A stretch of 64,000 bases of DNA from Ruditapes philippinarum (lineage: Eukaryota). A program made the translations under genes and the position numbers. Location: assembly GCF_026571515.1 (NCBI RefSeq), contig NW_026854712.1, positions 1 to 64,000 of the forward strand, given 5' to 3'. Positions 2,613-33,136 of this stretch are shown here, in pieces. How positions within the stretch are numbered: the first letter of the stretch is position 1; each line of letters opens with the position of its first letter. Under the pieces are notes generated by a model that did no database searches, was not told the DNA's origin, and worked only from the letters and a program-made list of their open reading frames with translations.

Positions 2613-5600
2613 TCAATAGGTACCGTTCAAATGACTGTATGTGTCATCCTCAACACGCAGATTTTTATAATCCCTTTTAACATCATCATAATCGTTTTCT
2701 TGCTTGTCAGGTACACCATAGATATTGTCTGTTTTATCATTGTTCATAAAGTTTCTGGTTATGTGATTATATTTTTCAGTTTCGTTTAATGTTTCAGATA
2801 ATTCTTTTACACATTCAGTAATCTGTAATGCTTTTATTTTTATAGCTGCATTCTCGGTGGTGTCATAAACGTTATCAAATTGGGTACCAAACTTTTTATT
2901 GAAATGTATTATATTATAATCGTCGTTGACACCTCTTCCATCTCTCCTGGAATTTGAAATATCACCATTGGCATGAGATTCTTTGGAGCCTGGTTCAAGA
3001 ATGAAGTAATTATGTGCATAATTACTATTGTCTACGTCGAGATCTTGATGAAGGTTTACGTTATCGTTTCCTTTAAAATCGTTTATTTGTTCATTTTCAG
3101 CTCCTAGAGATTGATTATACAGATTGTTTTCAGCTTGATTCTTACTGGCAGTTTCTTTAAATGAATCATTCCGAGAAGAACTTTTAAAACACATGTTTGG
3201 AATTTTGCCTCTGAAAAATAAAATCGAAATAACATTTAAGATCTTATGACAATCCGTATTTTCAACCGAAAAAAATATGTTGATGATTATAAACAAACAA
3301 TTTAATGCAATCTTTACTAAGCGTCACATTAATAAAACTTACTTATACATCTTTACCTGTAAAAGCATTCAAAAACAAATTATCACAAATAATCTGACAT
3401 GTTATATGTGATCAAAAGCAAAGGTAAACTAGCAACGGTAAACAAAATGAGTTATTTACCGTCGTTTCAACATTATTATGACAATAACAATGGCTGCCAC
3501 TAAGAGTAAAATCACAACTGAAACACTGACAAGGATACTGACATTGGAACCTGCAAGATAACAAATGGTAAAACTTGAATGATCATATGGCACACCGTCA
3601 AGCCATGTCAAAGGGTATTATAATTTAATTTCAAAACTGTTCATAAAAGCGCAGATCTTATAACCGTTGACGTCACGATTCCGTCAAAAAGACATGTAGT
3701 CAGCCAAAAGACATATATGTCAAATGGATCAAAGCCTGCTATTCCTTTTTTGAACCATGTTTAGGGGCCGTTTATTTCAAGTTAAGGATACAGACAATAG
3801 CATTGATACGTAGTTAATTAAAAGAAAATGTTTTTATGATGTTTAAGCCAGGTATTTTAGAAGATATAAGACTTTTTATAAAGTTAAGAGGCTCGTTCAT
3901 TTATACAATTACACAAGAAAAAGGGCAAAAAGGGTGAAAAATTTAAACTGCTTTATTAGCATTTTGTTTCTGCATGTTTTGTTTTTATATATCAGACAAT
4001 CCGATTAGTTTTATTCAGAAATTTTCAAAGTGTTTTAATGTATCGTGATTCTGTAATGCAACAAAGCTTTAAAGTTTTAATATGTTTAGAAATTTCCTTT
4101 TAGAGAAACGAGCACTAATGCTGGAGTTTGTTTATTTAAACTATTAACAAAATGTAACATTTAAAGAAGAGGAAAATATATGTTTTCTTATATTTAGCAT
4201 GAAAGAAAGATGTAAACTTGTCATACGTTACATGTATTGCTTTTTCAACTAGCCATATGAATAGATTATTCCAAAATATTTGTACCATTTCGCAGTCCAT
4301 AAACAGATACTTTATACTGTAAATATCCATACAGCAAAAATCACAGACACTAAATTCGGTTGATTTACTTTGAAGGAGGAACTTGTCTGACGCAATGTTC
4401 CTGTGTAAAAATTATACCGAAAGTTTTGTAAACTATTATCTTTATAGTATACAAAAAATAATTTTCGTACGTATTTTTCCATCGAAATTCTTTTTTTGTG
4501 AAAATCGTTCTTCCCATTTTATTTGCTTTCTTTTTTATTTTACACGGTCTCATTTGCTTTTGAATCTGTGTTAACTTTTTAATGTTTATTGATGTGTTTG
4601 TTTTTTCTATGATATCAAAAGTGCTTATTTCTATATGCGTTCAAAGTTTGACTAATTCATGGTAGTTTACGTTTCCATTCTTTGGGCATTAATGAATTTG
4701 ATTTATAAAAGTCAATGTTTCTGTATGAATGTTTAAATTAGGTTTCGGCTAATCAAAGGTTTCAAACTACTTTTTTTAAATGTTAAAAATATCCTTTACT
4801 TTATTAATATTTCTACATTTTAATTTTTGGAAAAAAATTAGGAGCCATTATTTTTAATTGTGAATTCTGTCATATTATTTGGTCTTATAGATTTTGTGGA
4901 TTTTTATTAAAAATTATTTTACTTCATGTTAGAATAGTAGTACATGTAATTATGTTAAGAAAATATTTTCGATTTTAAATTTCTGTATATTATTTGCTTT
5001 ACATTAATTTTAAATTAATCGATTCCACCAATTCTTTGAATTTTTTTCTTTATTATTTATATCCACAATCCATGGTTATTTTCATCAAATACCTTTTGAT
5101 CTAGCTTGATTTAATCGAGTAAATGAAAATTGGCAAGTCTATCATATTTGATACTCTATATTTAAAGTCTTGGATAAGTATATCCCTTTTAACTTTGCCT
5201 CTTTTTGAGTGCCATGTATTCAAAATAGTTTTTGTAATTGTTCTCATCATTTCTTCAGGTAGACTCAAAAGAACAGATATTGTGATAGTTAGTTCTAAGG
5301 ACTTAAATACGGATATATTGACAATTGTTGTTAAATACCTTGCTATCCATTTATTTATGTCCTCTTTAATTTGTTAAAATTATTATTTTGTTTTTCGGAC
5401 TTACGACCTCAGACTTTAAGGTTAAAAAAACATGTATCGATCTCAATATAAGTTTCTTATTTTACGTTATTATGTTCATATATCCAACATTGAACAATTT
5501 TGTATTGGAATTATCTGTTATTAACTATGCATTAATCAGACATTGTAAAACGGGTTGAAAGGCTGAGTTTTTCAAGGCTAACGTAGTCTGTACCTTAAAC

Positions 5601-8600
5601 CGCAAACGATTGTCACCTGGCGCATTTATGAACCACCAGAACAGCCTCTACAAACAGGAATTTTGACAAAAGTACTACGGATATAGTTTTCTGTTTCTAG
5701 AGGCCGTTCAGTATTAATATAAATATTAAACAGATGTCGTGTTAAGGCAAACTGAAATAACTTCAATAAAATCTGTCCTTCGACTGTTATGAAAGACGTG
5801 GACTTTTTGCAGGACAACGCACACAAATAAGGTACTGAAATTACATTTTTAGAAAATGGCTGTCATTAAACAACCACCATATTCTCCATTTACTTGGCAC
5901 CCTGCGATTTTTTTCTGTTCCCAAGACTGAACAACATCTTGAGTGTCATCGCTACAAGAGTGGACATGAGCTTATTAGAAGATTTACCTAAGGAGGAGTA
6001 TGTCGAAGCATTAAAAATGAATTAAACGTCTGAAACGTTTCTTATGTAGGATGACGTTGAAATGGTTTAAAATAGGAAATTGTAAATGTTTGCTCTTTTC
6101 TTAAATTTAGTATATATTAATCTACTTTCGTATTCATATAAAATCTCCAATAAAATGTCAATTTTGTATTCTGACAAGCTAATGATTTCTTATAATATTA
6201 TTACATACAAATTGCATTTGTATAATTTTTTTTACAAATACCATTGAACAAAATTCGAATTTGGTTAAGAATTAAAAATGTTACTTACTTTCAAGTGCAC
6301 TAATTTCGTCATTTGATTGAAAGCCTTTCGTCATATTTATAAATTCATTCTGGATACTAGATGTTAATGTTCTGTCAGTTATTCTTGATGTAAATGGAGT
6401 AGTCGTATGCGTAGATATTCCTGTTGTTAAAATATAATTGTGTTTGGTTTGAAAATATGCAAAACCTATTTACAGTAAGTCTCCCCCTTTTTCAGCTCTG
6501 ACTTTTCGTCGCCCTGAATCAGGCTAGGTCATATAACGAGTTCATGTGCCCCTCTGTATTTTTTCCAGTCATTAACGGGACTCAAGTAATAATATAACTG
6601 TCTTAATCACACTGTATTAATCACACATATTGAAAATTTAGAACGTAGATTTTATGAAATAGAAAAAGAATCATTATTAAAACTGCAAGAAGAATTGACT
6701 TCTTTAAGGATAGAAAAAATGAAAGGCCATTTTGTAAGATCTAGAGCTAAGTGGACTGATTGCGGTAAAAAGCCCACCAACTATTTCTGTAATTTAGAAA
6801 AAATTAATTATACAGGAAAATTATACCATTTTTTACAGAAAAATTGGAGACCAATAATAAAAAATCAGAGAGATATTTTACAGGAAGCAGACTCTTATGA
6901 CACGCAATTATGTACAAAAGTAAAATTTGAGAGAACTATACAAGACACATTTTTCTTGAAAATAATACTGATACTCTGAAGTAAAGTACAGAGGTTTCAG
7001 ATTCTCTTATACTGAAATTAGAGATACCTTAAATAATATAAAAATGACAAAAGTCTTGGATCTGATTTTTTTCTGCATTTTTTTTTAAGTATTCTGGAAT
7101 AAAATTAGACATTTTATTATTTGATATATAAACTGTGTATTTAATGAAAATCATTCAATAATACATAAAATGGAATCATTAATTGCATTCCAAAAGATAA
7201 AAAAAACCTTATCAATTCTTAAAAATTGGATACTTTTCCTCTCTTAAATACTATTTATTAACTAGCTTCTGGTTTTACAGCAAAAAGATTAAAATCTGTT
7301 TTAGATTATTTAATATACAAGGATCAGACGGGTTTTGTTAAAGGCCGGTTTGTAGGGGAAAATACACGAAAAATATCACAATAGGTCGATGAAAAAAAAT
7401 TACATAGTGCTTTAAATATTTTGGAACATTTTGCTATATAATCTGGTCTAAAATTTAATTTTGAGTAAAACACATGTTTTTTGGATAGGTTCTTTAAAGT
7501 ACAGCATTAGGTCCATCAAAATGGAAACTGAACTGTGTCAGTACACAATTCAAACTACGTGAATTTTATTTTGATGTTAATTTGGATGAAATGATATGTT
7601 TGAACTTTGATGAAAACTTGAAAATATTCAAAATTCTATACAATACTGGAAAAAGAGAGAACTGACACCAGTAGACGTGTAAGTGTTATTCAGTTTTTAC
7701 TATTGCCAATGTTAACTCAGTTATTTATATCTTTTCCAAATCCAAATAGACACTGGATAAATAATATTAATAAAATGTTTTTTGATTATATATGGAATGG
7801 TCCATCTAGAATAAAAATATCATTGTTATTTAAGATTATACAGAAGGTGGTGGTATTAGCACAAATGAATAATCTAAAACTTACCTGCCTTAGAAGGCTT
7901 TTACTAAGAGGTGATAATAAATGTTATGCTTTAGCTAATGTTATTATCATTACTGAAACATTGTTCAATTGTGGAAGATTGTATGCTTAAATAGAATATA
8001 AAAACTCAAACAATCTTTTTTGGAAAAATGTTGTTAAATGATATTTTGATTTTATTAACATTTTCCCAATTGATAGTATGGACAAATTCTGTAGTACGCC
8101 ATTGTTTTATAATGATCATAACTTTATAATGGATCATAAACATGTGTTCTTTAAGGATTGGCATGAAAAGGGGATTGGATATGTCAGAGATATATTGGAT
8201 GCTAGCAAAAATGTAATACCAAAGCATGAATTTGATAGAAAACCTGCTTTAAATACAAAGTTCTAACAATTTGAAGCGTTAATTAGAAGCATCAAATACT
8301 TTTTAAAATCTAGAACAGAATTAATCCGTTACAAATCTATTTCCCACCTTCCCTTTGTGTTATTAAAACCTATATTACTATGTAAACAATGAACCTCTAT
8401 TATTTACAATATATTAACAACTAACGACGAAAAGCCTACCTCCAAAGCGGCTAGTTGTAGTGTTTTTGATAAAGCTCCATTGGAGTGGAAAATCTATACA
8501 GTTGGATTTTTAAACTAACAAATGATACTTATTTCTAATGGCTTCAATCTAAGCTTTTGCATAGAATTTTAGCTACAAATACTTTGTTTAAAATGAATAT

Positions 8601-11600
8601 TGTGACTGTAAAAGTGAGAATGAAACACTGCTTAACTTGTTTTGGGAATGTGATAAAATAAAGTCATTAATAGCAGATATTACTGAACATGTCAAATCAT
8701 TCAATGTAAACTTTGAGAGAGATTGCAAAACTTTTTATTTTGGGAAATACCAAGAAAATTTGAATGTTATAACATATTTTGCCTATAAACCAAAAGACAT
8801 ATTTATTTATATAAGAGATCATAATGTATTGATCCACATCTGGATGGGCTGAAAGGAAACTTAAAATAAGCATCATCAATTGTTAAAAACACAAACATTT
8901 TGGAAAATAAACTGTCAAATTGGTTCATGGTAAATTTCCCATGTGAAATATAATTATAAATATCAATGATTTGCTTATGATTAAATTTAAGATTGTTACA
9001 AGTGGATTAGTCTACACATATTCATTTTATTTTTCTAAGAAGCTCAAATATTTAAAAACAATAAAAAACAACAACAATATAACACAAAAACTCCGCTAGG
9101 AATGTATCATTTGGATATTCTTATAAAATATTGTTAGAAGTAAATAAAATGCAAAGTGATTCAAGAAGAACTTAATTGAATTTAAATAATTAAATATGTT
9201 GCATTTCATTGTAAGCCATTCAATTAAAAAAAGAAAATGGTATTGCAGTATTTGTATATCAAAATTGTTTTGTTAAATTGTATTGACGTAATTACTTTTA
9301 TCTTAATTGCACATAATATTAATGTTACATGTATATAACATGCATTTGTAATAAAAAATATAAGTGTTTACTAATGTCAGGCAAGTTAGTCTCATAAATG
9401 ATTTTAAGAATGTCAGTCTAAAGGTGTTAGATAAATGTTCCGAAATATATGTCTCTATATATAAGCTTCGTTTTAACACGAACGTACATCTTACTTCATT
9501 TTCCTTGGAGCATTAGTATCAAACATTGGTAATGATGATTAAGTATGCTGTTTTTATAGTACATTTTCACAAGGGTAGGAAGAATGTTATCTATAATCTA
9601 TAATTCTTACAATAGATTTTTATAAAAATATTCAATGGCTACCAATATATTCAATCACGATTATTACTTAGTAATTGGATATTCTCTCAACATTACCTTG
9701 TGCTGATATCCTGGTGCTAAGAATTATGTTTGTGGTTTTGGTAGGATATAAAGTCACGTATGTCTGTGGTATAGAAGGTGAGGTCCATATTGCTTCCTTT
9801 AATGGTTTAGTTATAACAACTGCGTTCAATATAGAATTGTATATTTATTTTAACTCATATGGTTGTAAGTGTCAATTCAAAGGACACTTATTTTTATTAA
9901 AATATGGTAAACAAGTTAAACAAAGAAAGGTGGCATTGAAAGAACGCAACCCCCACACGATCTAGCATCAAGGACCAGCGGTCAGGAACCCATGAGAGCC
10001 CCAAATAAAATAAGAACAGGACATAAGGCAGAGCACGGACAGGATACGTACTCAATAATACTTTAAAGGAAATAATAGTAACCGACAAGGAAATCAGATA
10101 CAATTTATTGAGTAATAGGCCCATAACGTAAAAGGCACATGGGAAGGGAACTTCAAGTACGGGAAAGGGGAGGGACAAAATTTAAAAAAAAGAAACTACG
10201 GGCAAAAGGGAATATACTAACCAAAGACGAGAAAACAACAAGGGACACAAACACAAGTGTCACCCAAACAGTATAAAACAACAAAGACATACATCTAAGG
10301 AATACAGAGGGGCGCCGTTTTGGAATTGTCAGCAACATAAGCATTGCTTGGCAGGTTTAACCGATCATTGGTGACCAAACCTCACTCTTAGCACCACCAT
10401 CGTCCTATAAACGAGGTTTTATTTAACGTCACATACGTTGATTTTTTTCTATTGTTATTGAATAATTTAACAATGTGTAATATTAGATAATGCTTTCAGC
10501 AAGACGCTAATTAAAATGTTTGAATAAAATAAATCTATGATAACTATAAACTTACGTGTTTGAAGAAAATATGGTTTCTTTGTTCTGTTCAAGGTAAATG
10601 AAAGAGTTGTAATGTTCCCATGTTTAGTAACATATCCATACCCTTTAACGTTACTTCGATGAATTTGACTTTTGAAAGTATCTAATAATAAAAAAAGAAA
10701 GAAAAACACGCACAAACAAGAAACGCACAAAATTCAAAGTTTGTCATTATGTTTGGTTGTATTTCTTTTCTACAAATGTCAGTTCTTTTACACCATATGT
10801 CTGCGTATTGTTTTTTTTATTTCAAGATCCATGAAAAGTACATTTATCTGTTATATGTTAAATCATGTCGTATCACAATTGGTGAAATGAACAAATATAG
10901 TGTACCATATTCAAAGATAATTGATATAATACAAACATATGCAAAGATCCAGATGTGCACTATTCTTTGTATGAAATGATAATTTTGTTTGGCGGCCATA
11001 TGGAAGAAATGTTTGTTAGTTGAGAAACGAGGAATTATCTTGTAAACGACTCACTTGAGTCAAGTATATGGATATAGTGCACATCTAGATCACCGTTATG
11101 CATTTACTTTTTTATCGATTCTTAATTTGTAATCCAAATGAAAAACTTACTATCAGATTTGAATATCACATCACTACGTATAATATTCGTCCATAATTGA
11201 CCAGTAATTTGATTCACTTCTACACTCAACGTGTCATTATAGGTAATCGGGAAACGTTGAAATTCAAAACATGTTTGCACATAAATGTTCCAACCAACAT
11301 ATCTTACATCCTCAAATACAACATTGGATATATTAGGATCTGAAAATAATGAGGAAAGTGTTTGCTTAAAGGTAAACTGTCCTAACCAGACAATTTGTAT
11401 CTCAGCTAAATATGTTGTTCATCTTTAAAACATGTTCTCAGTTGTCTCACAAGTTCATGTAAACCAACTAACCAACGCACTTGTATTGTCAACATATTGG
11501 ACACTTGACTTAAAATTGATGAAATAAGAAAAGTCTAGTAAGTCTACTTAATCTATTGTCGTCTGCAAATTTTGAATATTAAAATAGTTAATTTAATTTT

Positions 11601-14600
11601 GTCGATGAAACTCAAGACTTATTGAAACAGATTTACAATAAGTTCTCATTAGAAAAGAATGTAATTCTTTGTATTCTTATATCTATTCTGTAAAGAAAGT
11701 AAAATAACCCTGTTGGGCACACTCTGCAAACACTGGAAATTGCACAACCAAAATGCAATGCGATTGTCATATGGATGTCATTACTTTCCAGGAAAAACAC
11801 AAGCCTTAGGACTACAGTCTGTTTAATTAAACGGAAATAGCAGCAATACCTTCCCTTCCGAGAAAAAAAATCCTTAATAATCTCAATCTTATGAGCATCT
11901 GTATTGCCTCAAATAAAAACATAACAAAGGAACAACTGGTATAATAGTCTGACCTGTCACAATATAGATATTAATAAATGACATGTCGACTGTGTTTAAG
12001 AAAAACGTAATGAATACCATGTTTGAGACATTAAATCTTTTTTAAGGAAACATTAGTTCGTTTCCTGTTACTTTAATCATCCCCGTTTCAGTAATCATCC
12101 GTTTCTTTTTTCACGTCGGGTGGTGGGGGGGGGGGGTGATTACAACTAATAGAATCGGCATTTTAGGTTTGCATCAATATTCCAGAACACTTTGGTGCGC
12201 TTACAACAATGTCAATATCATATAAAAAAATGTGCTGCAAAGGCAAATATAAATATTATTTTGAAATTACAAAGAAAAGTGTGGCAACACGTTACTTCAG
12301 TGTTATTATATTTTTCTGGTCCACCGGTATCATTGATTCAAACACTTTAAGTATATATGAAATGAGTACCGCTCAAGTCGGTGCTAGGGGGCGTGAGGGA
12401 CGTTGCACTTTTCATTATCCCTCATGTACAGACTCAATCAAACCGAGTCAGTAATATCATGAAATATTGTTATGATTAATGCTTCCGATGGATCACACTT
12501 CATCCAGTACTTTATACCTTAACTTTATTCGTACTATTTCCTATGATACCATTAAATATGTTAAACTGACACTATGATTTGAAGCGATTATAGAATTTAT
12601 ACATTACATATCGACAAGCCTTAGAATCAAAGTCCCCGATAATATGAGAGAGCGTGCAGCTCAAACAGGGATAGAAGATAAGTAAATAGAAAACCTTTAC
12701 TGTTTAAAATTATGTTTATTTGTTGATAGTGTGTTCTCAGGGGGAGATTGTAAGTGTATAAGGGAAAACAAAAAAGAAAGAAATGTTATGTTAATCCCTG
12801 CCAGTTAATCCTTAAACCCAAATCAACCATACAAGCATACATGATATAATTGAACTAAAAATATGTCTCTCAGTATTAAATGATATAATATCGTAATGAA
12901 TTTTGAAATGTTGTATTATTAAACATGTTCGACCACCTAAAAAAATTACTGATGAATATTTTTTCTAACTCAACAAATAAAAATTAAAAATATACTATTT
13001 ATCATAAAACTTACATATTGCAGAAAAATCATTGTATACCTTTCGTACATAGTACTTTATACGCTGTGCTGCACATACTCCATACACCTTTTGTGTTTTT
13101 TTCATAAGCAAGACACTTTCCGTTGTTCTTGCTGCCTATTACACTAGTATCTGAAAGGGAAACGACACAGTTATGACGAATACATAAGAGTCACTGAACT
13201 ATTCACATTCGTGTCGCTATTGGTCAATTCTAAACTAAACAACAAAAGAAAAAAAAAATAGACAAAGATTTGTGTTCCCTCTGACGTTGATTAGTCCAAA
13301 CCTATTGGTTAATATATGGAAAAGTAGGTTTTTACAATAAGAATGTTAATATACTTTTCAAGCAAATAAGCATAAGAAAAATAAACGTTCACACACTTCT
13401 ATAAAAGTATTGAAACACTAATGATGCTTTAAAATGCTAATAAGTAAATTGTAACAAAGGTAAAACAACTTCAATTATGATCATGATACCCGTTTTCATT
13501 CTTTCATATATGGACATATAATCATCTCCTCCACCAGCTACCCAAGTTCCGTTATTAGGTGAAATATCACATTTAGGCAGATTTATGTTCTTGCTTGGTT
13601 TTTCGTTTAAACAAATACACTGCGACAAAGAAAACAAAAAGATCCAATTAATTCTTTTACAGCAATAAACGTTGTACTGAAAAAATGATATCAGTTTCTT
13701 ATCACATTGTAAAGTTAGCACTATATCGATATCAAATCACAATGATAAACGTTCTCTTGGATGTATCTATTTAATACAAACATATTGAATAAATGATATA
13801 GTTATGCTCATTAATTAAAACATTATTTCTAAACTTTTCACCCAATAAAATTTAAATAATTTAAATTATTCATCACACAAGACGATTTTTTATTATTTTT
13901 TGTTGTTACCATGTTGTTTATTACCTTGCCTTTGTTTAACCCGACATATTTTGTATAAGATTTATGACACATTGAAAAGCAAATGCCTGGGGTATTCATC
14001 AATACCGGCAATAAAACATCTGGTTCTGTATTGTTTAAAGAGCCACATCCTGTAATATGTAACAATAATTCATGTTTTAAACAGTATATGAGAGCATGTT
14101 CGCAATAAATCTTGACATTACTAAACTAGCATAAGCATCTTGGAGTATGTTTATCGATTTTATTTACATGTGTGACCATTCCTTTGTCAAAGAAACGGAA
14201 TTTCTTACAAGAAAAGCTATATGCTGGTAACAACCAAAAACAATACTATGACATCTTTTCTATTTCCTTTAATTCCTGAACATACTGACCATTGAGTTAT
14301 TACATACATTGAGAATTGTAAACAGGTTTTTTTTTGTTATATAATGGGACATAAGTAAATACGCAGATATTCTGAAGTGAAACAAAAATGTTTATTCCTA
14401 ATGACATACAAAAAAAATTAGAGAAATTATGAATCCCAATAGAACGTCTAAAAGAGCAAAATTGAAAATGTTATAGACTCGGTTTGATTGAGCCCGTTCA
14501 TGGACAATATTATTAAGTGCAAACTACCATCCACTCGCCTAGCACCAGCTTAAGCAAAATTCAAGATTAAACCATGAAATGACAAACATTTTAATTTAGA

Positions 14601-15310
14601 AACATCCGCTGATAATTATGTTAATACAGCGGTTATCATGGAACTTTCAATGTGACACGTTAGTGCCATTCCATGAAAACCGGCACATGGTCCCCAAATA
14701 ATAGAAAGCGTCTTCCCTAAACGAGAAAACAATGGGCGGAACTTAAAATGAATTTTTAAAGGCACATTTGTCTTTAATATCAGCTATTACGAAAAAATGT
14801 TTTTGCTTAAAATTTGTTCATTTTTTTCTAAGCTAAACTAAATTGTTTGTTGTTATTATGATATTGCTTGCAGGCAAATATTTAAAAAAAAAAGATACAA
14901 TGTGAATGCAAATGCTAATTACGAATTTAGAACACTTTGTTGATCCAAATCTTATTTGCAATACTAACAACTGTTTATTTATTTTTGCATTTTCAAAGTC
15001 AAACAATTCCAATTTAGAAAGAAAATAGCTGCAATGAAATAACAAATAATGAAAGAATCATCTACCATTCCAATTTCTTGCTTAATAAAATATGAATTTC
15101 AATTAGTCAATAAGTCATTACCAATGTATGCAAATGCTGTTTCTTTCATGTAATATCCAACCCATGCTTCTTCATTGTCATTTAGGTTAGAAACTTCTTC
15201 AACAATAATTGATGAATTATTTACATGTATCTTTGGTGCTGCCAAATTGCCTTTTCCCCTTGCATCTTGCCACGTAAACGATTCGTTTGATAGTACATAA
15301 TTGGCTGAAA
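2613..15310 (-). CDS. Gene A: multi-exon type I membrane receptor (CTLD-like/WSC ectodomain, Ser/Thr stalk, TM, ~200 aa tyrosine-rich tail), ~620 aa; first exon unresolved (near 17040-17320)
   Basis: Phase-compatible GT-AG exons read by hand: 15310-15122 (YVLSNESFTWQDARGKGNLAAP..AWVGYY..FAYIG), 14049-13925 (GC..NTPGICFSMC..YVGL), 13619-13490 (CIC..KCDISP..AGG..SIY), 13150-13040 (GKCLAY..WSMC..VLCTK), 11339-11151 (GWNIYVQTCF..LWTNIIRS), 10681-10556 (GYGYVTK), 9819-9697 and 6420-6289 (Thr/Ser-rich), 3550-3460 (TM: VSILVSVSVVILLLVAAIVIVIIMLKRR), 3210-2613 (tail, the real part of ORF 2613..3296). No stops; exon order and phases match genes B and C. Confidence 0.85.
3930..5540 (-). mobile_element. 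Decayed LINE (L1/Tx1-like) 3' fragment in gene A intron
   Basis: Minus-strand CDFC..YLFMDC..VQIFW resembles the C-terminal zinc knuckle of LINE ORF2; frameshifted and full of stops; boundaries approximate. Confidence 0.55.
5570..6075 (+). mobile_element. Mariner transposase C-terminal relic
   Basis: ttgcaggacaacgca (LHDNA-like) and ccaccatattctcca..ttggcaccctgcgatttttttctgttccca (PPYSPxLAPCDFFLFP). Confidence 0.75.
6620..8890 (+). mobile_element. Decayed L1/Tx1-like LINE ORF2 (reverse transcriptase region) in gene A intron
   Basis: Motifs RSRAKW..KKPTNYFCNLEK, DQTGFVKGRFVGEN, SGLKFNF, FFDYIWNG, LLHRILATN, LFWEC; many frameshifts and an internal deletion. Confidence 0.85.
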
Positions 15311-16420: not shown

Positions 16421-18730
16421 CTCTTATTAGATTTCGAGTAATCAATCTAATATGCGATGTTAAATTTATCCATGTTTAAAGCATGGTAGAAAAAAATATT
16501 GCATAAACCGTGCAAAATAACCCAATATGCATTTTGCAGAGACATTCAAAAGTATAAAAGTTTCTAAATAGATCAGAGGAATGCTGCTACCTTTTAGCTG
16601 TACCGATGTATTTGTATCATTTTGGCAACTAAACACGGCCGGGGCTATAGACTAACACAGACGTTTCAAAATCTGACTGTCCTGCGCAGGACAAATATTT
16701 TATCTAGGTCGGTCGTAGTCAAGGTCCTATTTTTCTTCCGGGTTGACGGGTCACGATAGTCACTTTATTCACTATGGCGTTTGCAATTTAACTTGTAGTA
16801 TAGCTTACAGTGCTATGCTGTAATCTGTTTGCCTAATATTGAAGAAACATGTACACCAAAATAGTTCCAAGTTCCGAACCAAAATGAATCTAGGGAATTT
16901 TTTACATTGTATTATTTATTTTAGAAATTTAGATAAATTTTGGAGATGATATTTCGTGAATATTATATGTTTTTTCAAAAGTATACAACTGCGCAATTGA
17001 ACAGTGTAGTGAATAGTTATCGTATGTTATATAGAACTTACTTGAATAAAAAGTTTAAAGCGAGTGTGATGGAATATGTTACTATCATTACTTCTGTTCG
17101 CTTGCATAGAAAATAGATAAACATAATAGTACATCAGGAATCTAGTATATGAATAACACATAAAGTAAAAAACCTAAAAATATGAAAAAATCATCTTATA
17201 TGCTTACATTTAATTGTCATTTAAACTTCCATACCGGTAATCATTTCTGTACAAAAATCTAATATAACACCAAAGGAATAAATATACCTGTAAATAACTC
17301 AGTACTCGATGCTGTCTGTCATTTCAATAAACTGTTAGTATTTTGAAAAAAAGTTTTTGATTTAACTAACTACACGTAAAAAAGAGACAGGGCTAACAGG
17401 CAAAATATATATTACAATTGATTAAGTAATAAAATACCGCTATCAGAAGCAACCCACAGAAAAATCCAAAACAAACATGATTCCACCATCGTTTCACAAC
17501 TGAAAGCGTAAACTTTCCTAACTCCTAACAACTACACTAGACTCGTTGTTTTGGTCTGTGTAGAATGAATTTAAAAAGATAAAGAGTTTACATAAAAATG
17601 CGGTAAACAAGGAAGCACGTCTAAATAGGCGAATCGTTTATCTGTACAAAGTTTAAAAAAAAACGTAAATATTATATCCATATTTCATTCTATCTGTCTT
17701 CTACTTTATTTGCGATTAATTTCGGAGGCGATTTTCAAATAAACCCCTCGTAGGATCGTCTGCACTGACCTTAAATGGTCATCTTCACGTGCATAAAGTA
17801 ATCAGGTTTCATTTAAAGGCATTAATTTTAAGGTTATCTATCATTACTTATTTAAGAATAAATTTACAGATATTCAAGCCCCCCGTTTCAGAATCCTAAG
17901 CGTTCCGCAACTAATCTGTTTATCTGTCGGTTTTATGTTTTGTATATTACCAAATTAGGATATCGGAATAACAAAAGATGATGTGAATCATTTAAACTAA
18001 CTGTCTATCATTTTTTTCTAAAAAGATAATTTCGATACGACGTTACAGTTATCGTTCCATTTACAAACAGTTTTCATACAAGAGCATATCATGGTAAATT
18101 CGCTAAGCACAAACTGCGTGTATGATATTTGTATATTATTACCTTTGGTAAGTTGTTTATCGTTTGTATGTTTTTTGTTAGCTAGTCATTGGAACAATCA
18201 AAAGTCTTACAAAATGCATGTCTGTTTTCGTTTTGAATAATGCTTATGTTATATGTTTGATAAATGCTGAAAGAAATTATATAGTCCATATACTCTAAAA
18301 AGACTTGTACCTGTATAGATAAGATGTGCTATAGACCAGGGAAAAATCTGTTCCGCAAGCATTATTGTTGCGTATAACATGTTAACATTTACATGCAAGT
18401 AATAATTCCTCAACAAATACTACCTCATGTTTACTTTCTATTTTTTTTCAAAATTTGAAATAATGCAATACATGTACAATCAAATGACAACCACTTCAAT
18501 CAACATACACTTTATGATTTTGCAATTTTGTACAATTACTTAAAATGGTTGTTTCAAGCACCATCGAATTTAGTCGATTGTAAAACCAATTTTACGGTTA
18601 TAATTTCTCTTAAGCAATGATACTTTAAATACATGAATTTAAATTTTATACCGCGTTATATGATAGCAATACTTCCGGGTGTGTTTATCTTCGTCAATGT
18701 TATCCTGATAGACAGCCTAATAAAGTAGGA

Positions 18731-21700
18731 ATGTCAGGTGTCAAACAATTGATTTTGTTGCTTCTTTTTCGGATATGTGTTTCTACAGGTAATTATAACT
18801 ATTCAGTTAACCTAATTAGTTGCGTATCAAACATATTATATTAAGCAATTATGTAAATAACTTATGTAAAAAAGAATTGCTTGTACATGTATTATAAAGG
18901 TAGACCGTTTTAGGTTTTTCATAATTATAATAAACTATTTAATGTTCAGGAAATGTTTTGTCGTCCCTTTGTGCATGTTGTGTTTTCGAGGCAAAGAAAA
19001 ATAACAACGTGGTGGAGTAAATCATTTATCATAGTCTAGTGACAAATGATTGTCAGCATGAGAAAATGATGTTAAGAAATATACCTCGAATAAATTGATA
19101 ACTAGCTTTTAAAGTTCTTATTTCTGTCGTTAGCAGTCCTTCATACTTATACAATGATGTGTTGAACGAAACTAGTAAAAATATATAAACATTGTCATAT
19201 AAGTTGTTCATAAAATCATGCAACTAAGCGTATGAATTGTAAAACATCTTGAAAATCATGCAAGTAGTATCATGTGATGATAGCTTTTGCTGAAAAAAAG
19301 ATAGCCGATAGATGGTTGAATGGCTGTTGTACATACTGTTAATTTTACTATGTGACTAAGAAAATTGTATTGTTACATAGGTAACAGTACTTGTAGACTA
19401 GTTACGTGGAGCATTTCTAGCACACAAAGTAGCCGTCATTGGATTTTCGATTCAGCCTCTATTTTTTTCGAACTTAGGGTCATCATCAGAGCGACAATAA
19501 TCACCAGAAAATTTAGTTGTTTGTAACCAAAAGTGCTTTCCGGGTCTCAAACATTGTATGTTTGAATAGTCAAAAGGTAAACATCCGTTAGCAACGGAAG
19601 TTATTGCAGAGTAATATTTATCAAAATGAAACAAGCAGATGATTTAAACATACAAAGTTTATACATTTAGATCTGGTTGAAAATGTTCAGATCATTGAAG
19701 TATTTGTCTTGGGTAATAAAAGAAATAACACACAGGTTTGTAGACTCCTTCCGGGTGAAATTTTACCAACAAAATTATGTGCTTTTTATAACTATATTGT
19801 TTGTCGTTGTTAATATATTTTGCAAGTTTTATCAATACAATCTGTCTTGTTTTTCATAAGGAAGTGAGATGAGTAAAATATGTAAGTTTCAACAATCGAT
19901 CGCCCGATTTGAAACATGATATATCTCATAGCAGCAGGTGGGCTACTTATATTGAGTTCGCGTATCAAAACATTTTTTAACAATACAGATCACGACTTTT
20001 AAAATACTGACAGGTTTAAAAGGAAAATAAATAATTTTACAGATATTTTTTTTATCTATAATCGATAAGGTGGACAATAAAAGTGGGGGTAGCTTTAGCG
20101 AGTGATTTGTTAGTTTAAAGGTCAATTAAACCCTAAAATGTTACTATTTATATTGTTTAATAGCTGATTAAATTGTTGTTATGTTACAATTTACCAAAAG
20201 ATTTCTCATTTACCTTATATCTGAGCCATCTTTATTTTATTTTGCGTTTTGGAAATGAGTGCAGTTATAGTGATTTTGCATGGAAGTCAAAATACCATAT
20301 TGTTTGCTACTTGTACAGCAATTTGTTTCATATTCAATGCATTTCTTTCAGATGGTAAGCATCTGCAGGAATAACTTATATATACATACATGATTTTGAA
20401 TTTTGCGTTATTTATATGACTATTCTGGCACCTTAAAAAGTCTATTGTAGGTACATACTCGTACTATGTAGATACATTCTAAATTCCAGATTCATACAAT
20501 GAATTTATGACATGGGAGAAAGCAAAAGACAATTGCATGTTAGCAACACCGGAGTTTATTTATGATGGTGAAATCTTTACTGTAAATGATGATCAGAACT
20601 TGACAAATAGTATGGAAGGAAGGTGGCTTGGATACTACAAAAATATGCGGGGGTTTGAGTATTTTGGTAATACTATATTAATTTAAGTATTCTATCATCA
20701 TTTTTGATTCTATTGATTCTATATTTTATCATTCTTTTTGGGTTACTTTAAATCTCACATTTACGTCAAAATAAGAATCAATATATTCATAACTGACTTA
20801 ATATAAATATCATCAATTTGCTTGCTTATAAGGCCAATTTTTTTACATCAAATATGTCATTGCAGAAAAACAGTTTTGTATTATTTATAAGGTAATGAAG
20901 TTGATCATTAAAGTTTTTAACGTTAACATTTGTGGCTAAAAATGATGTTATTTGATTTCAAATACATTTAGGATGTATTAACTATCCGGAAATGTTTGGA
21001 ATTCCACCGAAACGAATTGGAAATAATTCACCAGGAAATTGTTTTTCCGTATGTTCACGAAGAGCAACATTTGTTGGACTAATGGGTCAAGAGGTAAAAA
21101 TAGTAATTACTAAAATGCTAAAAAATAGAAAGGTAGAGAATCCATAGTTTATTATAAGTTTTGTCATTGTATTAACACATCTAATTCTAATTATTTTGAT
21201 CTTATTACTAACCAGTAACCATTAATCGAATAAAACTTAAAACACTAAACCTAGTATGCGTAAAAACAAAATAATATTGATTTTAGATATCAAATGTTTT
21301 TAAATACATGGACATTATCAAGAGTCTAGTTTTTTTCAACTTTGTATTTCGCGCATCTCGGTTATATGACTTGTTAAAAAAGTTAAAATGTATCAGTATT
21401 TCATTTTATATTGTTTGATTTGAAATTACAGATATTTTGTGCTTTTACAGTGTTATTGTTTTAAAACGATCACAGCAGAAGAGAAAGTTGTTAGCAATGC
21501 GTCATGTAATGAATCATGTCCGCCACCATCTGAAGGTTTAGCTTGTGGGGGACAATCATTTATTTCTTTATATGTGGTTAATAAAAAAGGTAAGGAAGAT
21601 GTGCATAGGTGATAAATGTACAAAATATCATATACATCATAATAATATTTAGACAACAAAATGTTTAAATGATATGCGTATGCCCTTCAATGTATTTCAC

Positions 21701-24700
21701 CATATTATCTACTTCACTTGGGTAAATAACCCTCGCACTGAAATGTATAAAAGCATATTGATTTTATAAGGGTCCTATGAGAGTTTTAGTCTGTGTTTAA
21801 AAGTTGAAATGAACCTTTTGTGCAATTTAGAAATTATCTATAAAAGCAATACTAAGGATATGTTAATGTTCATCCATGCTAATCTACAGAAATAAGAAAC
21901 TTCGACGGGAACGATAGCTAAGGATGAGCATTAACATACTTAGTGTCCAGCTTTATTTGTCTTCATTAATATTCACTATATTTCTTCACTACCTGTCAAT
22001 TTTATGAACGCGGTTCTTAGAGGCACTATGAACAATAGAAGACGAGTATGAATGGAATCTAAATTGGTTCTTCTAAGGAAACCAACACATATAATTTTTA
22101 AGAAATACAGCGTTTTCATTGGATGACAAATAAAGCTGGACATCAATGGCCATTAAATTTTTGAGTTACAATAAAAGGAGATGATCGTCATTTGACATGT
22201 CATTATTCTTTAAACACACTAGTTATCAAGGGGGAGAATCACGCCATTCGTTACCCAAGCAAACAAGATGGCAGATGCAGCCGAAAAATTAGTTTTTTTC
22301 CTTTTTTTCCCTGAAATTAGTAATTTTCTTGTGTAAATGTACATATAATAATCTTCTTCACAATTTTCCGGGCACACAGGATTTAATTTCATGGTGTTTT
22401 GTCCCGTACTTCATCTGAAATGCGCGTCACCATAATAGATGCGAGAGAATTTTCCACAGGTTTGATCGTAATAACCTACGGCTTCTTCTCTCAAATTCAC
22501 TGTTTCGTTTACATATATGCTTATTGACTGAAACCGCTGACTTAAATAAGTTGTAATACGTCGTCATCTAAGCATTCATGACCATTCTGGCTAGATTTAC
22601 GCTCTAATAATAATATCGGGGCATTTTCCGGAAATGATAACGTATGGCGCACAAAATATCAATGATAACGTACGGCGCACAAAATATTAATGATAACGTG
22701 CGGCGCATTTTTCTTCTTGGTGGACTTCCATTTGTCCAGTCAGCTGATAATGAATTATTTGTATGTCGGAAATGATAGATATCTGAAAAAATGTTTGTCT
22801 GTTCAGAATTAAATAATTGAACAATGCTGCACCATTGGATATAAATATCTTTCTAGCTGGTGGCATAATAGATATTCGTTGTTAATATACTAACCTTTTT
22901 CTACCAATTAAAACACACATGTATAGTTTGAGATTATTTTTGTATAAAGAAAAGCCTCCACTTTCAATGAACATTGTATATTGTTGTCTTCACATTAATG
23001 TTCGCAATTATGTTCGTATCCCCTTGTCAGAAAGAAGAAACGCATTCAGCAGAGCAGATATTAAAAAGGTATGGACGGCTAGATATATTTTCTTTTCCGG
23101 TTATCATAAACGAAAGGAACGTCATAATTTGATCAAAACAATTACATGCAATTCATTAATTTGCCTATCATAATCTGGCGATACTTTATCTAAAATAATG
23201 TTCATACCACCAGAGGTGCCTACGTTAGCGCTCATATTTTGTGCGCCATACGTTCCATTTCCGGAAAATGCATCGATATTTCCATCACAGCGGTTATTCT
23301 AGCTATAATGGGCATCGATGCTTAGATGACGACATATTACAACTTTGTAAAGTCAGTGGTTACAGTTTATATACATATATGTAAATGAAACAGTGAATAT
23401 TAGGGAGGAAGCCGTACGTTATCACGATCAAACCGGTGGAAAATTATCTCGCTTCGATTCTGGTGACGCGCATTTCAGATGAAGTACGGGACAAAACATT
23501 ATGTAATAAAATCCTGTGTGCCAGGAAAATTGTGAAGAAGATTATTATATGTACCTTTACACAAGAACATCACGAGTTTTAGACAAAAAAGGGAAACACT
23601 AACTTTTCGGCTGCATCCGCCATCTTGTTTGCTTGGGTAACGAATGGCGTGATTCTCCCACGTGAGTTATTATATTGTTAAAACACTCACTTTATTTTGA
23701 TCTTTTATTGACTTTTTTCTTAAGGGAGTACATAATTTTAAAAATCATCATATCTTTACAAATTCAGTTCAAAACTATTTCCATGCCGACAATGAAACTG
23801 ATATAATTTATATAGTAACTGCCATATATTTCCTTTAAACATAGATTTGAAATTTCAATATATTTTATAAGGAACATGACACAACACAATCAGTTAAGAA
23901 GTCTATAAAACAAATCATATAAGCCATGATCGCTCCTATTACATTAGTTGATTATGTTCTTAAAAGCTTATAATTTGTTGTATTTCTAGCTTTCTATATT
24001 GCCTGCAATCAATGTGGCTTAAATCTCGTAATTATTAAGATGGCATCTTATCAACACGGATCCTGGACATTAAGATTTTTAAACATGTTTAAATATTTTT
24101 ACCATTTCAGTTCTAAACATCCGTAAGGTGTTTGGTCAAAATAAAAATAAAAGTAATTGCGTCAGGCTGGAAAGCGACAAGAAACTTTTGTGGGATCAGT
24201 GCGACTCTGCGTTACACAATAAATGCTATGATGGTAAATATTTAAAATCTTCAAGTAGTAAATAGGAAACTGAAGCACCATTGTCATCGATCCATATTTA
24301 AAATTCGGACAGTTATAGCACATGCCAAAATGTTTGGTACAAATATGTGCTCTATATACGCTTGTTATACAAACACATCTCCCTTTATATGAACTATTTG
24401 GTGCTTTATATGAACTATGTGGTGTTTTATATGACCTATTTGGTACTTTATATGAACTAATTGGTACATTTTTTTACATTTAACCTTTGAAAACCTTGTA
24501 ACTTGCAGTGTTCAATTTTAGTAACAATATTAAACAAATTCATAACCGTTCGATTGGAACAGGGTAAATTATAACAATATGTGACAATTATTTCGCTTGA
24601 ATATGTAAACTGACCCATAAAACGTCGTTAATTATATTTATTTTATTAATAATAACCAAAAATCTCTATACATATTTTAATGCAACTGTACCTTATGTAA

Positions 24701-27700
24701 AAGATGTTCAGGTTGTCAAAAACAGCCTAAAACTAAATGTTATGTCTAGAAATAATTGTGTATTCTGACTGATTACAGCAATGTACGATGCAATAATGCA
24801 TACATTACAACATGTCTTACATGATTCCATTTATGATCCCTAAATTATTTGTTGAACATTTCAGTTTTAATTTTTTTTGTCGTTTTATCTGATTTGTTTT
24901 GTAGTGATTTGTAGTTATGTCCTAATGTAAATTAAAAGCATTGATCTCATACTCCCATCAATTTTAGGAACAACAGCTTACGATGTGCCTGCTCCAACGA
25001 CAGGTCGGCAATATTTTCCATGGTATTGGGCAAATAACTTATGTTTTGGCAGCAATGTTCGACCATTTTTATATGAAAATGCTGTGAACTTTAACGGAAC
25101 AACTTTAGAGTCTTGGACAGGAATGTGTCGCAGTCTGTCAATCTTCACATTCTCAGGTATCCTTTAGTTTCAATATAGCGTTTTATTTAGTTTACCTTAG
25201 TATGCATTTCTGCGTTAAACCTGCGCTTGCAGGAATACATTTACGGAGGTGAAAGCATGCATCAATGGACACAATAACGCGATAACGTATCATTATTGTA
25301 CGTTCTTTATTATATGAACACAAGATAATCACAAAAGATTGATTTATGAAGAACATATATTTGGATTTTATATCTAAGATGAGCGTTAAATCATAAAAAG
25401 GCATAATTTTTGATAGGTTAATTGGTTAAAAAAATAAGCAAAAAGAGTCGAGCTATCAATTTATCTTTTATTTGACTTTTGTTCTCCTACCAGACATTTC
25501 CGTGCAAAGAATTTAACGAATCATTTAAGTTTTGTAATTTGTACCTGACGTCAAACTCACGCGTAAAATGCCTTGCAAAACCGGTAAAAAAACTTACAGA
25601 ATCCCTTATATTTTATCTAATGTCTTTGCTTGTGTGCCCCGGTATTAAATGCGTCCTTATTCATTAGCAGATGTTAATATATAAAATTTTCTTTTAGAAC
25701 CTATTATAGGAAACGTTCATTTGGAATACGGGTATTTGAAAAGATGTGATGCTTCTGATAAGTACGAACTTCATTTTACTAGAAACATGCAAGAACAAAA
25801 GAAATCGCTGTGCAAAAGCGATAGACAAACATCAAAAGAGCAACACAAAACCGGTGATGGTGGAAATTCAGGTACAACTTTATATAAAATAGTTGTTGTA
25901 ATTCAAATTTAATAAGAAAAATATATGAATAAAAATTTAATTGATATAAAAGACAAACCGCTTATGAAGTTTTTGTCTTTTTCATAAAGCTAAAATGATT
26001 ATAGACAACAAACATAATAAGGACACTGTAGATAATCATTTTTATTATAAAAACTATACATGCACCTTTACAAAGAATAAAAAAGACGTTAATTTTTTGG
26101 AAAGTCTTAATGTAAGGAACCCAGCCTTAATTAAACGATCAACTAAGTTATGATACGAGGGTTGTCCAAACAACTCGTGCACTGCAGTTATTGTCGTGAG
26201 AGTTATTGATAGAAAATCATGAATTATATATCACGTGAAGGGGAAATCTGTCTCAAATAAGAAAACAAAAGGAAAAGCCGTGTAACTGAAGTGTCATGAA
26301 AACAAATCGTCAAACACTTACCTTGGTAACGAAATAGCGGCGCACGACAAAAAAAGTGGGTTAGTTCATGACTTTGTTGCACGACAGTTTTCTTTAAACA
26401 CTGCACATTAATGTCAAAATTCGGGGAAAAGTGTGTGTACGTATTCCTGACATCCAAAGAAAAAATGACGTCATTTGCCTTATTATAACGGTCGTAAACA
26501 AACATTTCTGTGTGGTCGTCAATACTGTAATTACGTGAAAATTTCAGTCGCTAAACGTCTGGAAATACGGACGATCATAACATTTGGGCAAGTATTGGAA
26601 AAACACCGACAGATACCTACAAAGAATTTAAAAGGGCAAGGGTGACAACTTCAGTGTAACGAAGGCTGGTTTTTGAATGGCACAAATGCTCTGTAGAGGG
26701 TCGAGAGGAGGTAGATGATGACAACCGGTCAGGCAAACGTTCGTCCATAATGCCGGCGCATGCGTCGAGGGTTGTCCAATATACTCATGCACTGGTGGAT
26801 GTACGTTGCATAAGATAAAAAAAAAAACTAAAAATGCTTTCCATCAATCATTCCTCTATTGACAGTAAAACAAATTATGACATAATAAGCAAATGCCACT
26901 TTACAAGCGACAAAAAATTAATACAACCACAGTAATGAACTAACCCATCTTTTGTCGTGCACCGGTATTACGTTACTAAGGTAACTTAATGACAATTCTT
27001 TTTCACAACACGCCGGTTGCACGGCTTTTTCTGATGTTTCCCCTTCAAATGATATATAATTCATGTTTTTTTAATAATAACTCTCACGACAATAACTGCA
27101 GTGCACGAATTTTTTGGACAACCCTCGTATAATATATCTTTATTCAAGGGTATTATATATCATGAGAGTTTTGTTACTTCTTGACCACTGACCTTTTGAC
27201 CACTGACCATTTGACTATAGACCGATTGAACACTAAACTACTACAACCTTTCTCGAAAGAGCCATTTGTATACTTGACTGCGTGTTAATCTGTGTCCAAT
27301 CTGAACAATACCATGGTAATGTTTAAACTTTTCAATATTACCTCTCTGATCATTCCTTGCCAACTTGTCGTTTAACCGATTCATTTCAAAACCATCTTTT
27401 TTCCTCTTCTACCTTATTAAGTAATAAAATGTATTAATATTTTTCATTTCATTGCAAAAAAAGGGTTCCAACGTATACGTAAAGTTTAAAGTTATAGAAA
27501 AGTGTAAAAATGCGTCTGCTATACGCTACTTTTAAACCGGTACCGAGTAGATATTTTACTCGTGATTCCGCGGTGGACGCCGCTGTCATTCTTAAGCTAT
27601 CTTACCTGATGGTTTGCCCAGACTGTAGTTGTTTCTTAAGTCTATTATAATCGTGAACCGCATTGTTAAATCCTCATAACGAAACATTCGAAACAGAAAT

Positions 27701-28817
27701 ATGAACGAGGTCAGAACAACCATTAATTTAAGGATATCTTTTGTGTGTGCAACATTTGTTCTGCCATGGACACAATCGAGCTCTGGTGCGGATGTAACAT
27801 ACATTAAAAACGAACCAGAAGACTACCATTACAATAACAATTTGGCATCGCACAGGACAGTGAGACAAGAGCCAAATCGTAGTTAAACAATCATCATTTA
27901 CATACATTACATTTGAATATCAAGTAGAGTTTTAATATTTAGAAAGAAGCAAATGTTGCACACAGATACATTCTGTTACTTTATAGCAAAATAGTTTGCT
28001 GTAACAATTATATTTGCTTTTCTATCATTGTATATTTAAAGATATTATTTGCTATACAAATATCATTCATGTTTTTATTTTCAGATACAGATGTAGGTTT
28101 AATTGTAGGATCAATAGTTTCTGCTACCCTGCTTATTGTTACCATAGTGATAATTCTTGTTCTAGGCAAGCGGTAAGGTCATTCTCCTAAGAATGTTAGT
28201 TTTTACATGCATTATTTTTCTGTCTCTTCAACATTAAGGGGCTCGGGTCACATAATTTTCCATATATTCGTGTGTGTGCGTGCCTCTGTGTTTCTGTTTG
28301 AAGAAGTGTACTTCATGTCCGGCTCATAACCTCTGCATGCTTTATGGGATTAAAAAATCAATACAAATGACCACCATCAGTATACAATATTCAGCGTGCA
28401 AAACCCTGATCTAATGTCAAGACAACTTAAGAGGATTAAATTTGGTGAATTTGTTATTATATCGAATAGTACAGTTGAAGGTCTTTTTAGATCTGTAATG
28501 TCTGCATGTCAAATGATTCATGAAATGTTGTAAGCGTATACATTTTTTATAGGAGGATACTCTTAGTTCAATGCTGCAAGACAAAAGACCAGACACTGAG
28601 TTTTACCAACCATCAGGGTGCTAATGAGCATGTTGTAACAGGAAGAAGGAATTCAAACGAGCTCGCTTTGCCCGGCCAAATTAGTGGTTCCTCATACCAA
28701 AATGTTGAAGTACCATCTAGGGAGATCACTGATCCGCATACATATTGTGCACTTGAACATATCGGACGGAGAACAAATAATATGGAAAGTGAATACAGTC
28801 AACTGTCGTTATCTTGA
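18731..28817 (+). CDS. Gene B: multi-exon type I membrane receptor (signal peptide, CTLD-like/WSC ectodomain, TM, ITIM-bearing tail), ~445 aa
   Basis: Exons: 18731-18788 (MSGVKQLILLLLFRICVST), 20490-20666 (TWEKAKDNCMLATP..RWLGYY..FEYFG), 20972-21093 (GC..NNSPGNCFSVC..FVGL), 21451-21589 (CYC..SCNESC..ACGG..SLY, completing an 8-Cys WSC pattern), 24111-24233 (NCVRL..WDQC..NKC), 24968-25156 (PWYWANNLCF..SWTG), 25698-25871 (EYGYL..KSLC), 28085-28172 (TM: VGLIVGSIVSATLLIVTIVIILVLGKR), 28553-28817 (tail to TGA). All GT-AG and in frame; the exon 2 acceptor is ambiguous. Confidence 0.85.
21943..22141. repeat. Small inverted-repeat element (MITE-like)
   Basis: tgtccagctttatttgtc .. gacaaataaagctggaca. 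Confidence 0.65.
22227..23664. mobile_element. Non-autonomous DNA transposon (MITE/foldback) with ~450 bp TIRs and 6-bp TSD AGTTAT, in gene B intron 4
   Basis: caagggggagaatcacgccattcgttacccaagc.. is inverted at ..gcttgggtaacgaatggcgtgattctcccacgtg; agttat flanks both ends (22221-22226, 23665-23670). Confidence 0.9.
26156..27127 (+). mobile_element. Mariner-derived non-autonomous element with TA TSD, in gene B intron 7
   Basis: TA|cgagggttgtccaaa..tttggacaaccctcg|TA. Inverted arms ~200-250 bp. Internal relic of the transposase N-terminal HTH (EKTPTDTYKE..FEWHK..EGREEVDDDNRSG, ~26560-26745). Confidence 0.9.
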
Positions 28818-32529: not shown

Positions 32530-33136
32530 TCAATAGGTCCCGTTCAAATAATTGTATGTGTCATCTTCATCATGCAGATTCTATTTGAAATCCCTTCTAA
32601 CATCATCATAATTGTTTTCTTCCCTGTCAGGAATACCATAAACATTGTCTGTTTTGTTATTTTTCAAGATGTGTTTGCTTATGTGATTATATGTATCTTC
32701 TCCAGTTTCGGTTAATTTTTCAGAGAGTTCTTTATCACATTCAGTATTCTGTAGTGCTTTCAGTTTTGTAGCAGCATTCTCGGTGGTGTCATAAACGTTA
32801 TTAAATTTGGTACCAAACTTTTAATGTTAATGTACAATATTATAAACGTCGCTTATATCTGTTTCATCTTTCCTGGAATTTGAAATATCACCATCGATAT
32901 GAGATTCCCTGGAGCCAGGTTCAAGAATGAAATAATTATATGCATAATTACTACTGTCTACGTCAAGATCTTGATAAAGGGTTACATTATTGTTTTCTTT
33001 AAAATAGCTTATTTGTTCATTTTCAGCTCCTAGAGATTGATTATACAGATTGTTTTCAGCTTTATTCTTAACGGAAGTTTCTTTAAATGAATCATTCCGA
33101 GAAGAACTTTTGAAACACGTGTTTGGAATTTTGCTT
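32530..33136 (-). pseudogene. Orphan pseudo-exon: duplicate of gene A terminal (cytoplasmic tail) exon
   Basis: Colinear with 2613-3210 and keeps the acceptor and terminal NGTY*. It has in-frame stops (TAA twice near 32821-32830, TAG near 32581). No matching upstream exons found before gene C. Confidence 0.85.

Follow-up and report, generated by a model that had tools for sequence, protein, structure and literature searches.

In the tandem domain swap model, a 'central' circular permutant stands beside a 'terminal' domain, and the pertinent passages of the paper that sets out this model (PMC6863430) treat such a swap as a misfold of near-identical repeats, listing no PDB structure for it as of 2019. 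Interdigitated double Tudor domains are described for JMJD2A/2B/2C and ARID4A/4B in sections of PMC8038949. Within the C-type lectin-like superfamily, the excerpted text of PMC6468738 deals with snaclecs, which are the CLRPs of snake venom, and that of PMC3779223 with collagen IV NC1, which SCOP places in this superfamily and which shows 'segment swapping' between subdomains. Bivalve-specific CTLD-containing proteins with WSC have also been reported (PMC10140915); the main-text passages of that paper mention WSC solely as an addition and do not describe a CTLD that is split or swapped. Our literature search found neither a circularly permuted or intra-chain half-swapped CTLD nor a report on the structure of the clam CTLD-WSC family, while a segment-swap survey (Szilagyi et al. 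2012) may list a lectin case.

The swap arrangement is known from a few other folds, and predicted models make the clam CTLD a likely natural case of it. The predicted clam topology corresponds exactly to the tandem domain swap scheme, as far as the passages named above lay it out. In contrast to the misfold discussed there, the clam case would be a native state with divergent repeats and a whole domain in one hinge. As in the excerpts on double Tudor domains, the N- and C-terminal halves would form one hybrid domain and the middle halves the other, natively and within one chain. The double Tudor case differs in having the Tudor fold, in being nuclear, in lacking an inserted domain and disulfides, and in being solved, whereas the clam case is predicted. 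Snaclecs, as excerpted, likewise have a CTLD that opens after beta2, reaches the core of a second CTLD and has no calcium site, but their loop swap is inter-chain, the chain returns to its own core, and they are secreted heterodimers without WSC or membrane anchor, whereas the clam proteins are single-chain and have both. The earlier bivalve proteins, in the passages that describe them, share with ours the occurrence of CTLD and WSC together. In collagen IV NC1, the swapped element is a hairpin, not half a domain. It resembles the predicted clam fold in that two CTLD-like repeats in one chain exchange segments; it differs as a distant outlier of the superfamily.

The window, a 64-kb stretch of Ruditapes philippinarum DNA, is AT-rich animal DNA with three paralogous spliced genes, A, B and C, which belong to a bivalve family of type I membrane proteins. 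Gene A lies on the minus strand and genes B and C on the plus strand, with exons rebuilt from splice sites (Table 1); the span 10556-15310 extends from exon 7 to exon 2 of gene A. A 777-nt contig of run X1, presumed to be RNA from a guess at the nature of the run, covers part of exon 2 and exons 3-7 of gene A, with five GT-AG joints where they were modelled and no other letters. In the raw-read runs X21 and X23, exons had hardly any depth, and intronic repeats dominated. Exon 2 of gene A comprises beta1, an alpha1 without Cys and a WVGYY beta2 that runs into WSC. A contig piece over 6287-6720 links the candidate stalk exon of gene A to its tail exon; the exon immediately after exon 7 was searched for in the window and was not located. 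Database proteins that match exons of the window carry the name Ruditapes philippinarum. Gene B exon 2 has 100% identity to P0002, and the reading of exons 2-8 gives P0002. The segment 20255-20354 was dropped as exon 1 of gene B, since P0002 starts at 18731.

Table 1. Coordinates of the genes and exons modelled in the window.
Feature	Position	Strand	Basis
Gene A exon 1, signal peptide	17438..17489	-	ATG and GT donor; X3 contig joint 15311-17441
Gene A exon 2, CTLD N-half 1	15122..15310	-	splice model and X1 contig
Gene A exon 3, WSC first part, 3 Cys	13925..14049	-	splice model, X1 contig, Pfam
Gene A exon 4, WSC second part, 3 Cys	13490..13619	-	splice model and X1 contig
Gene A exon 5, CTLD C-half 1, three Cys, terminal Cys codon 13047-13049	13040..13150	-	splice model, X1 contig
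Gene A exon 6, CTLD N-half 2, helix Cys codon 11269-11271	11151..11339	-	splice model, X1 contig
Gene A exon 7, CTLD C-half 2 without Cys	10556..10681	-	splice model, X1 contig
Gene A candidate Ser/Thr-rich stalk exon	6289..6420	-	open frame between AG and GT
Gene A transmembrane exon	3460..3550	-	splice-site model
Gene A cytoplasmic tail exon, tyrosine-rich	2613..3210	-	splice-site model and contig
Gene B overall	18731..28790	+	exon 1 from 18731 (P0002 start)
Gene B exons 2-7	20490-20666, 20972-21093, 21451-21589, 24111-24233, 24968-25156, 25698-25871	+	
Gene B transmembrane exon	from 28085	+	
Gene B tail exon	about 28550-28810	+	
Gene C overall	37559..56491	+	close to P0001
Gene C exons	37559-37616, 42804-42995, 43793-43917, 44164-44287, 45505-45618, 53052-53243, 55060-55182	+	
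Gene C stalk exon	from 56403	+	

The proteins begin with a signal peptide, after which exon 2 encodes the N-half of a CTLD, exons 3-4 the WSC domain and exon 5 a CTLD C-half; exon 6 adds a second N-half and exon 7 a second C-half, and a stalk, a transmembrane helix and a tail rich in tyrosine complete the order. The original prediction for this locus did not mention the WSC domain that separates the CTLD halves. In P0002, the gene B protein, WSC was matched by Pfam PF01822 (E 6e-7, 30 bits against a cut-off of 27.8); P0001 also exceeded the cut-off, and 26 of 60 members gave a WSC profile match at E 0.1 or better. The WSC of the predicted P0002 model matched the fold of the Kremen and Wsc1 domains (5fws, 7pz2) with Z 10.7-11.5, the value for yeast Wsc1 being 11.5. 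Most family members escape Pfam Lectin_C, which matched 3 of 60; the best match (E 7e-11) was in P0149, where Pfam calls exons 6 and 7 one colinear Lectin_C, and P0118 gave a weak match across exons 6-7. A PDB sequence search gave no real match. A WIGL-type beta2 motif is present in exon 2 (W in 51 and G in 52 of 60) and in exon 6 (W in 53, T in 53 and G in 38). Exon 2 resembles exon 6 (hhalign E 9e-4, probability 23%), and exon 5 resembles exon 7 (E 7e-4, probability 27%); the resemblance is weak and was seen only in these two among ten block pairs. The calcium motifs EPN, QPD and WND occurred in 1, 0 and 1 of the 60 members, respectively, and none stood at the canonical place. Cysteine positions of the C1-C4 and C2-C3 type exist, but covariation links them across the repeats, and exon 7 lacks C2/C3 in most members.

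Cysteines were numbered by P0002, with C35 in exon 2, C204 in exon 5, C232 in exon 6 and C308 in exon 7. The pattern on which the original prediction was built was confirmed: gene B has KDNC in exon 2 (Cys codon 20534-20536) and KSLC in exon 7 (25811-25813), and genes A and C lack both cysteines while keeping the terminal Cys of exon 5 (VLC, KLC) and the helix Cys of exon 6 (QTC, KAC). The claim that exactly these two had been lost was incorrect, as A and C lack six of the sixteen cysteines of B (C35, C142, C151, C260, C286 and C308), the C142/C151 pair being the one missing from exon 4 of gene A. The even counts reported for A and B were correct, with 0, 3, 3, 3, 1 and 0 cysteines in exons 2-7 of A (10 in all) and 1, 3, 5, 3, 2 and 2 in those of B (16). 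As an argument for pairing, however, evenness was weak and was rejected, because the ectodomain of gene C has 11; P0011 and P0012, relatives of B, also speak against it, as they keep C260 without C286. A and C do not count as two separate losses: they fall into one clade with P0001, P0004 and P0024 (SH-aLRT 98), and thus the window alone offers one loss event. On their own, A, B and C could not exceed chance, and the family alignment does. The conclusion drawn from joint loss holds, but the argument is weaker than it was made to appear, with six cysteines lost, a shared event and an odd count in C. Exon 4 of gene C (44164-44287, plus strand) carries an extra unpaired Cys in WSC, also found in P0001 and P0037, and an inter-chain bond through it is possible.

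A profile search yielded 150 proteins, and the 60 near-full-length ones were aligned; 12 rows without exon 2 or exon 7 were left out, and 48 cover both regions. C35 and C308 were both present in 42 of these 48 rows, both absent in 4 and discordant in 2 (Fisher p 1.3e-4 for association, in rows that are non-independent). Both of the latter appear to be artefacts: P0033 lacks an exon-7 block, and P0073 is truncated at the N terminus, its Cys showing up in a second alignment. C204 and C232 were found in 60 of 60 aligned homologs, at a spacing of 22-38 (median 27). P0034 has lost C35 and C308 and has kept C142 and C151, the WSC pair lost in the A/C clade, and it therefore isolates the C35/C308 pair. 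On the tree, the joint loss needed two changes, and a single origin was not rejected (p-AU 0.153); the joint loss is one or two events. An MI-APC scan placed C35-C308 at rank 19 of 37,083, behind C35-C151 and many noise-like pairs, at a depth (Neff 49) too shallow for contact mapping. Named homologs, among 10 proteins, are from Mercenaria, Mactra, Mya, Tegillarca and Sinanodonta, and a further search with the 60-row alignment gave 10 matches, nearly all already in the set.

Exon 2 has at least 27 matches in the Ruditapes philippinarum genome. Among the genomic paralogs read in both exons, both cysteines are absent from A, C, L006, L007, L009, L016 and L017, and both are present in B, two genes in L001-L002, L019 and L020; L006 has another Cys two residues earlier and a broken exon 6. 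No locus carried only one of the two cysteines. B (P0002) and P0006 have an additional pair, C260/C286, across exons 6 and 7. The B clade, Mercenaria P0012 among its members, retains C260, whereas C286 is confined to P0002 and P0006, and P0005, like P0011 and P0012, has C260 without C286. The two cysteines do not covary, and a C260-C286 bond as a family feature was rejected. Gene models P0046, P0050, P0071, P0098, P0122, P0123, P0137, P0007, P0060 and P0070 lack an exon-5 or exon-6 block. Both exons are phase 1-1, and their skipping keeps the frame; these models are either real isoforms or annotation errors. P0007 was rejected as a natural protein without exon 6, which is present in the genome (L001), and L020 as a clean deletion of exons 5-6, since its DNA aligns to L019 there. 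Missing-exon gene models such as P0007 were not used as evidence.

Two proteins were folded, P0002 (gene B) and P0151 (Mercenaria). For P0002, AlphaFold2 was given the same 60-row alignment that shows the covariation, and thus the two lines of evidence are not independent. Mean pLDDT was 75.6-76.1 over five models and pTM 0.67, with most ectodomain blocks above 90. The model contains an 18-residue strand (65-82) that leads from exon-2 beta2 into WSC and a 13-residue one (255-267) at exon-6 beta2; the junction of exons 5 and 6 lies within a hairpin (strands 200-205 and 210-212). It was searched against 48,161 chains (VIA search), and the best 50 matches were taken. Rows 1-4 were WSC, and rows 5-50 were 46 CTLD chains, with middling Z-scores of 6.6-8.1 over 80-107 aligned residues. 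All 46 CTLD rows among the best 50 began at model residue 1-22 and ended at 310-324, where ranges denote the first and last aligned residue only. Alignments that run from exon 2 to exon 7 imply that one CTLD-shaped unit of the predicted model uses exon 2 together with no less than the final strand of exon 7. Within the model, this agrees with a terminal domain made of the N-half of repeat 1 and the C-half of repeat 2. Foldseek with the full model found WSC only, and the best ESM Atlas scores, 0.80 and 0.84, served as leads only.

P0151 has only the exon 5, 6 and 7 blocks, leaving exon 6 free to be completed by either neighbour. Residues 21-100 (exons 5 and 6) scored 74-94 per block, the exon-5 hairpin reaching 91-92, whereas the exon-7 blocks scored 66, 85, 73 and 54 and formed no beta5 strand. 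In this predicted model, exons 5 and 6 fold confidently, and exon 6 is not completed by exon 7. Against the 48,161 chains, no P0151 match reached Z 5, and the best were weak (Z 3.1 or less). The CTLD chains 1byf, 3wsr and 8w8t, which matched the full P0002 model with Z 6.6-7.4, matched P0151 at residues 50-106 only, through their N-halves (Z 2.7-2.8). The sequential CTLD alignments ended at 104-106, never reaching the exon-7 hairpin at 119-133, and the structure search gave no CTLD match for exons 6 and 7; Foldseek found no match to this model. An N-half-only match is the behaviour expected of a sequential aligner on a circular permutant, and exons 5 and 6 were confident, with a beta5-beta1 hairpin, in both models.

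Family covariation and two AlphaFold2 models thus support a pairing of exon 2 with exon 7 and a circularly permuted CTLD built from exons 5 and 6; this support is computational and includes structure searches with the predicted models. We put the probability at about 0.8 that the A/B/C ectodomain natively takes the form of a half-swap within one chain, one hinge of which holds WSC. In this fold, exons 2 and 7 would make an outer CTLD and exons 5 and 6 an inner, circularly permuted one, with WSC inserted in the first hinge. After beta2 of each repeat, a long strand (65-82, 255-267) would cross to the other core. The chain would pass from exon 2 through WSC to a beta3-beta5 built on the exon-6 core, exon-5 beta5 would turn into exon-6 beta1 as a hairpin, and the chain end would return for exon 7 to complete exon 2. 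The likely disulfides are C35-C308 (outer, lost in the A/C clade), C204-C232 (inner, invariant) and C182-C196. A dispensable outer and an indispensable inner bond would fit the view, given in the relevant passages of PMC6863430, that tandem swaps are decided by how stable the central domain is.

If the tandem CTLDs were ordinary, exons 2 and 5 would form one domain with WSC in its long loop and exons 6 and 7 the other, leaving two free or cross-linked cysteines in the A/C clade. The colinear sequence order, the Lectin_C calls across exons 6-7 in P0149 and weakly P0118, the small number of independent loss events, and the C260/C286 pair of B and P0006, which would suit exon 6-7 pairing, all agree with such folding. 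It would, however, give alignment ranges of about 22-205 or 207-310, and none of the 46 CTLD rows among the best 50 maps to either consecutive unit; exons 6 and 7 of P0151 have no CTLD match, and C204 and C232 are invariant even where their ordinary partners are gone. We consider ordinary folding very improbable. Similarly slight is the chance that the half-pairings form between the two chains of a swapped dimer, which the monomer model would mimic. Covariation is blind to the difference between intra- and inter-chain bonds, and in snaclecs this very loop region is exchanged between chains (PMC6468738, as excerpted), but the monomer model is confident across the ectodomain, and exons 5 and 6 are joined as a short covalent hairpin, given the median C204-C232 spacing.

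A more limited exchange, in which only the last strands are swapped (exon-7 beta5 to exon 2, exon-5 beta5 to exon 6) and beta3-beta4 remain with the N-half of their own repeat, would produce the same disulfides as the full half-swap and no full circular permutant. The covariation and the 22-310 ranges fit it equally well, it would put C260 of B near C286, and the exon-7 hairpin of P0151 still forms, with pLDDT 85 in one block. Set against this are the P0151 alignments that stop short of that hairpin, the high scores of the exon-5 hairpin, and the lack of covariation between C260 and C286. The predicted P0151 model, for which matches are weak and which comes from another species, favours the full half-swap over the last-strand exchange, and we regard the latter as unlikely.

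If it exists, the full half-swap would give one of the most intensively studied extracellular folds a circularly permuted CTLD that occurs in nature, along with a tandem swap as the native state. It would offer a test case, readable through disulfides, of how tandem repeats turned a misfolding route into a native fold, a change that a domain inserted into the long loop may have set off. The swap would also account for a large bivalve membrane-protein family labelled 'uncharacterized' or 'WSC domain-containing', and would mean that colinear profile matches can misassign domain boundaries. The history may have begun with an ancestor that had two CTLDs, both of them with a phase-1 intron in the long-loop region, WSC having entered the first before the swap was fixed. 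From the anatomy and the family expansion, we infer a receptor function, in which a rigid recognition head on a stalk would act other than as a calcium-dependent lectin, probably binding through WSC or protein-like surfaces and signalling through the tyrosine-rich tail. In P0016 (Mercenaria LOC123561668), residues 26-609 contain two complete modules in tandem, with a link of about two residues between the last strand of module 1 and the first of module 2. It is probable, if with less assurance than for the A/B/C fold itself, that a bivalve-wide receptor family has a tandem CTLD swap as its native state, secured by disulfides between the repeats, in which a natural circular permutant of the CTLD occurs and WSC sits in the hinge, and that the swap may run across two-residue-linked modules as in P0016.

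Elsewhere in the window, an orphan copy of the gene A cytoplasmic tail exon lies at 32584-33200 (minus strand), with in-frame stops and about 70-77% protein identity, and is probably a remnant of a fourth paralog. The gene A introns at about 12300-12500 and 14450-14750 contain high-copy repeats, which reads cover very deeply and which inverted joins connect to each other; related copies lie near 1900-2300. Long inverted repeat pairs in the gene B introns (22165-23690 and 26057-27181) are probably non-autonomous DNA transposons. The region 56600-58000 is homopolymer-rich and of low apparent sequence quality, and the 3' exons of gene C are unreadable there. The long intron of gene C holds open-frame fragments (48819-49956), which presumably resemble LINE-type ORF1 and endonuclease remains.
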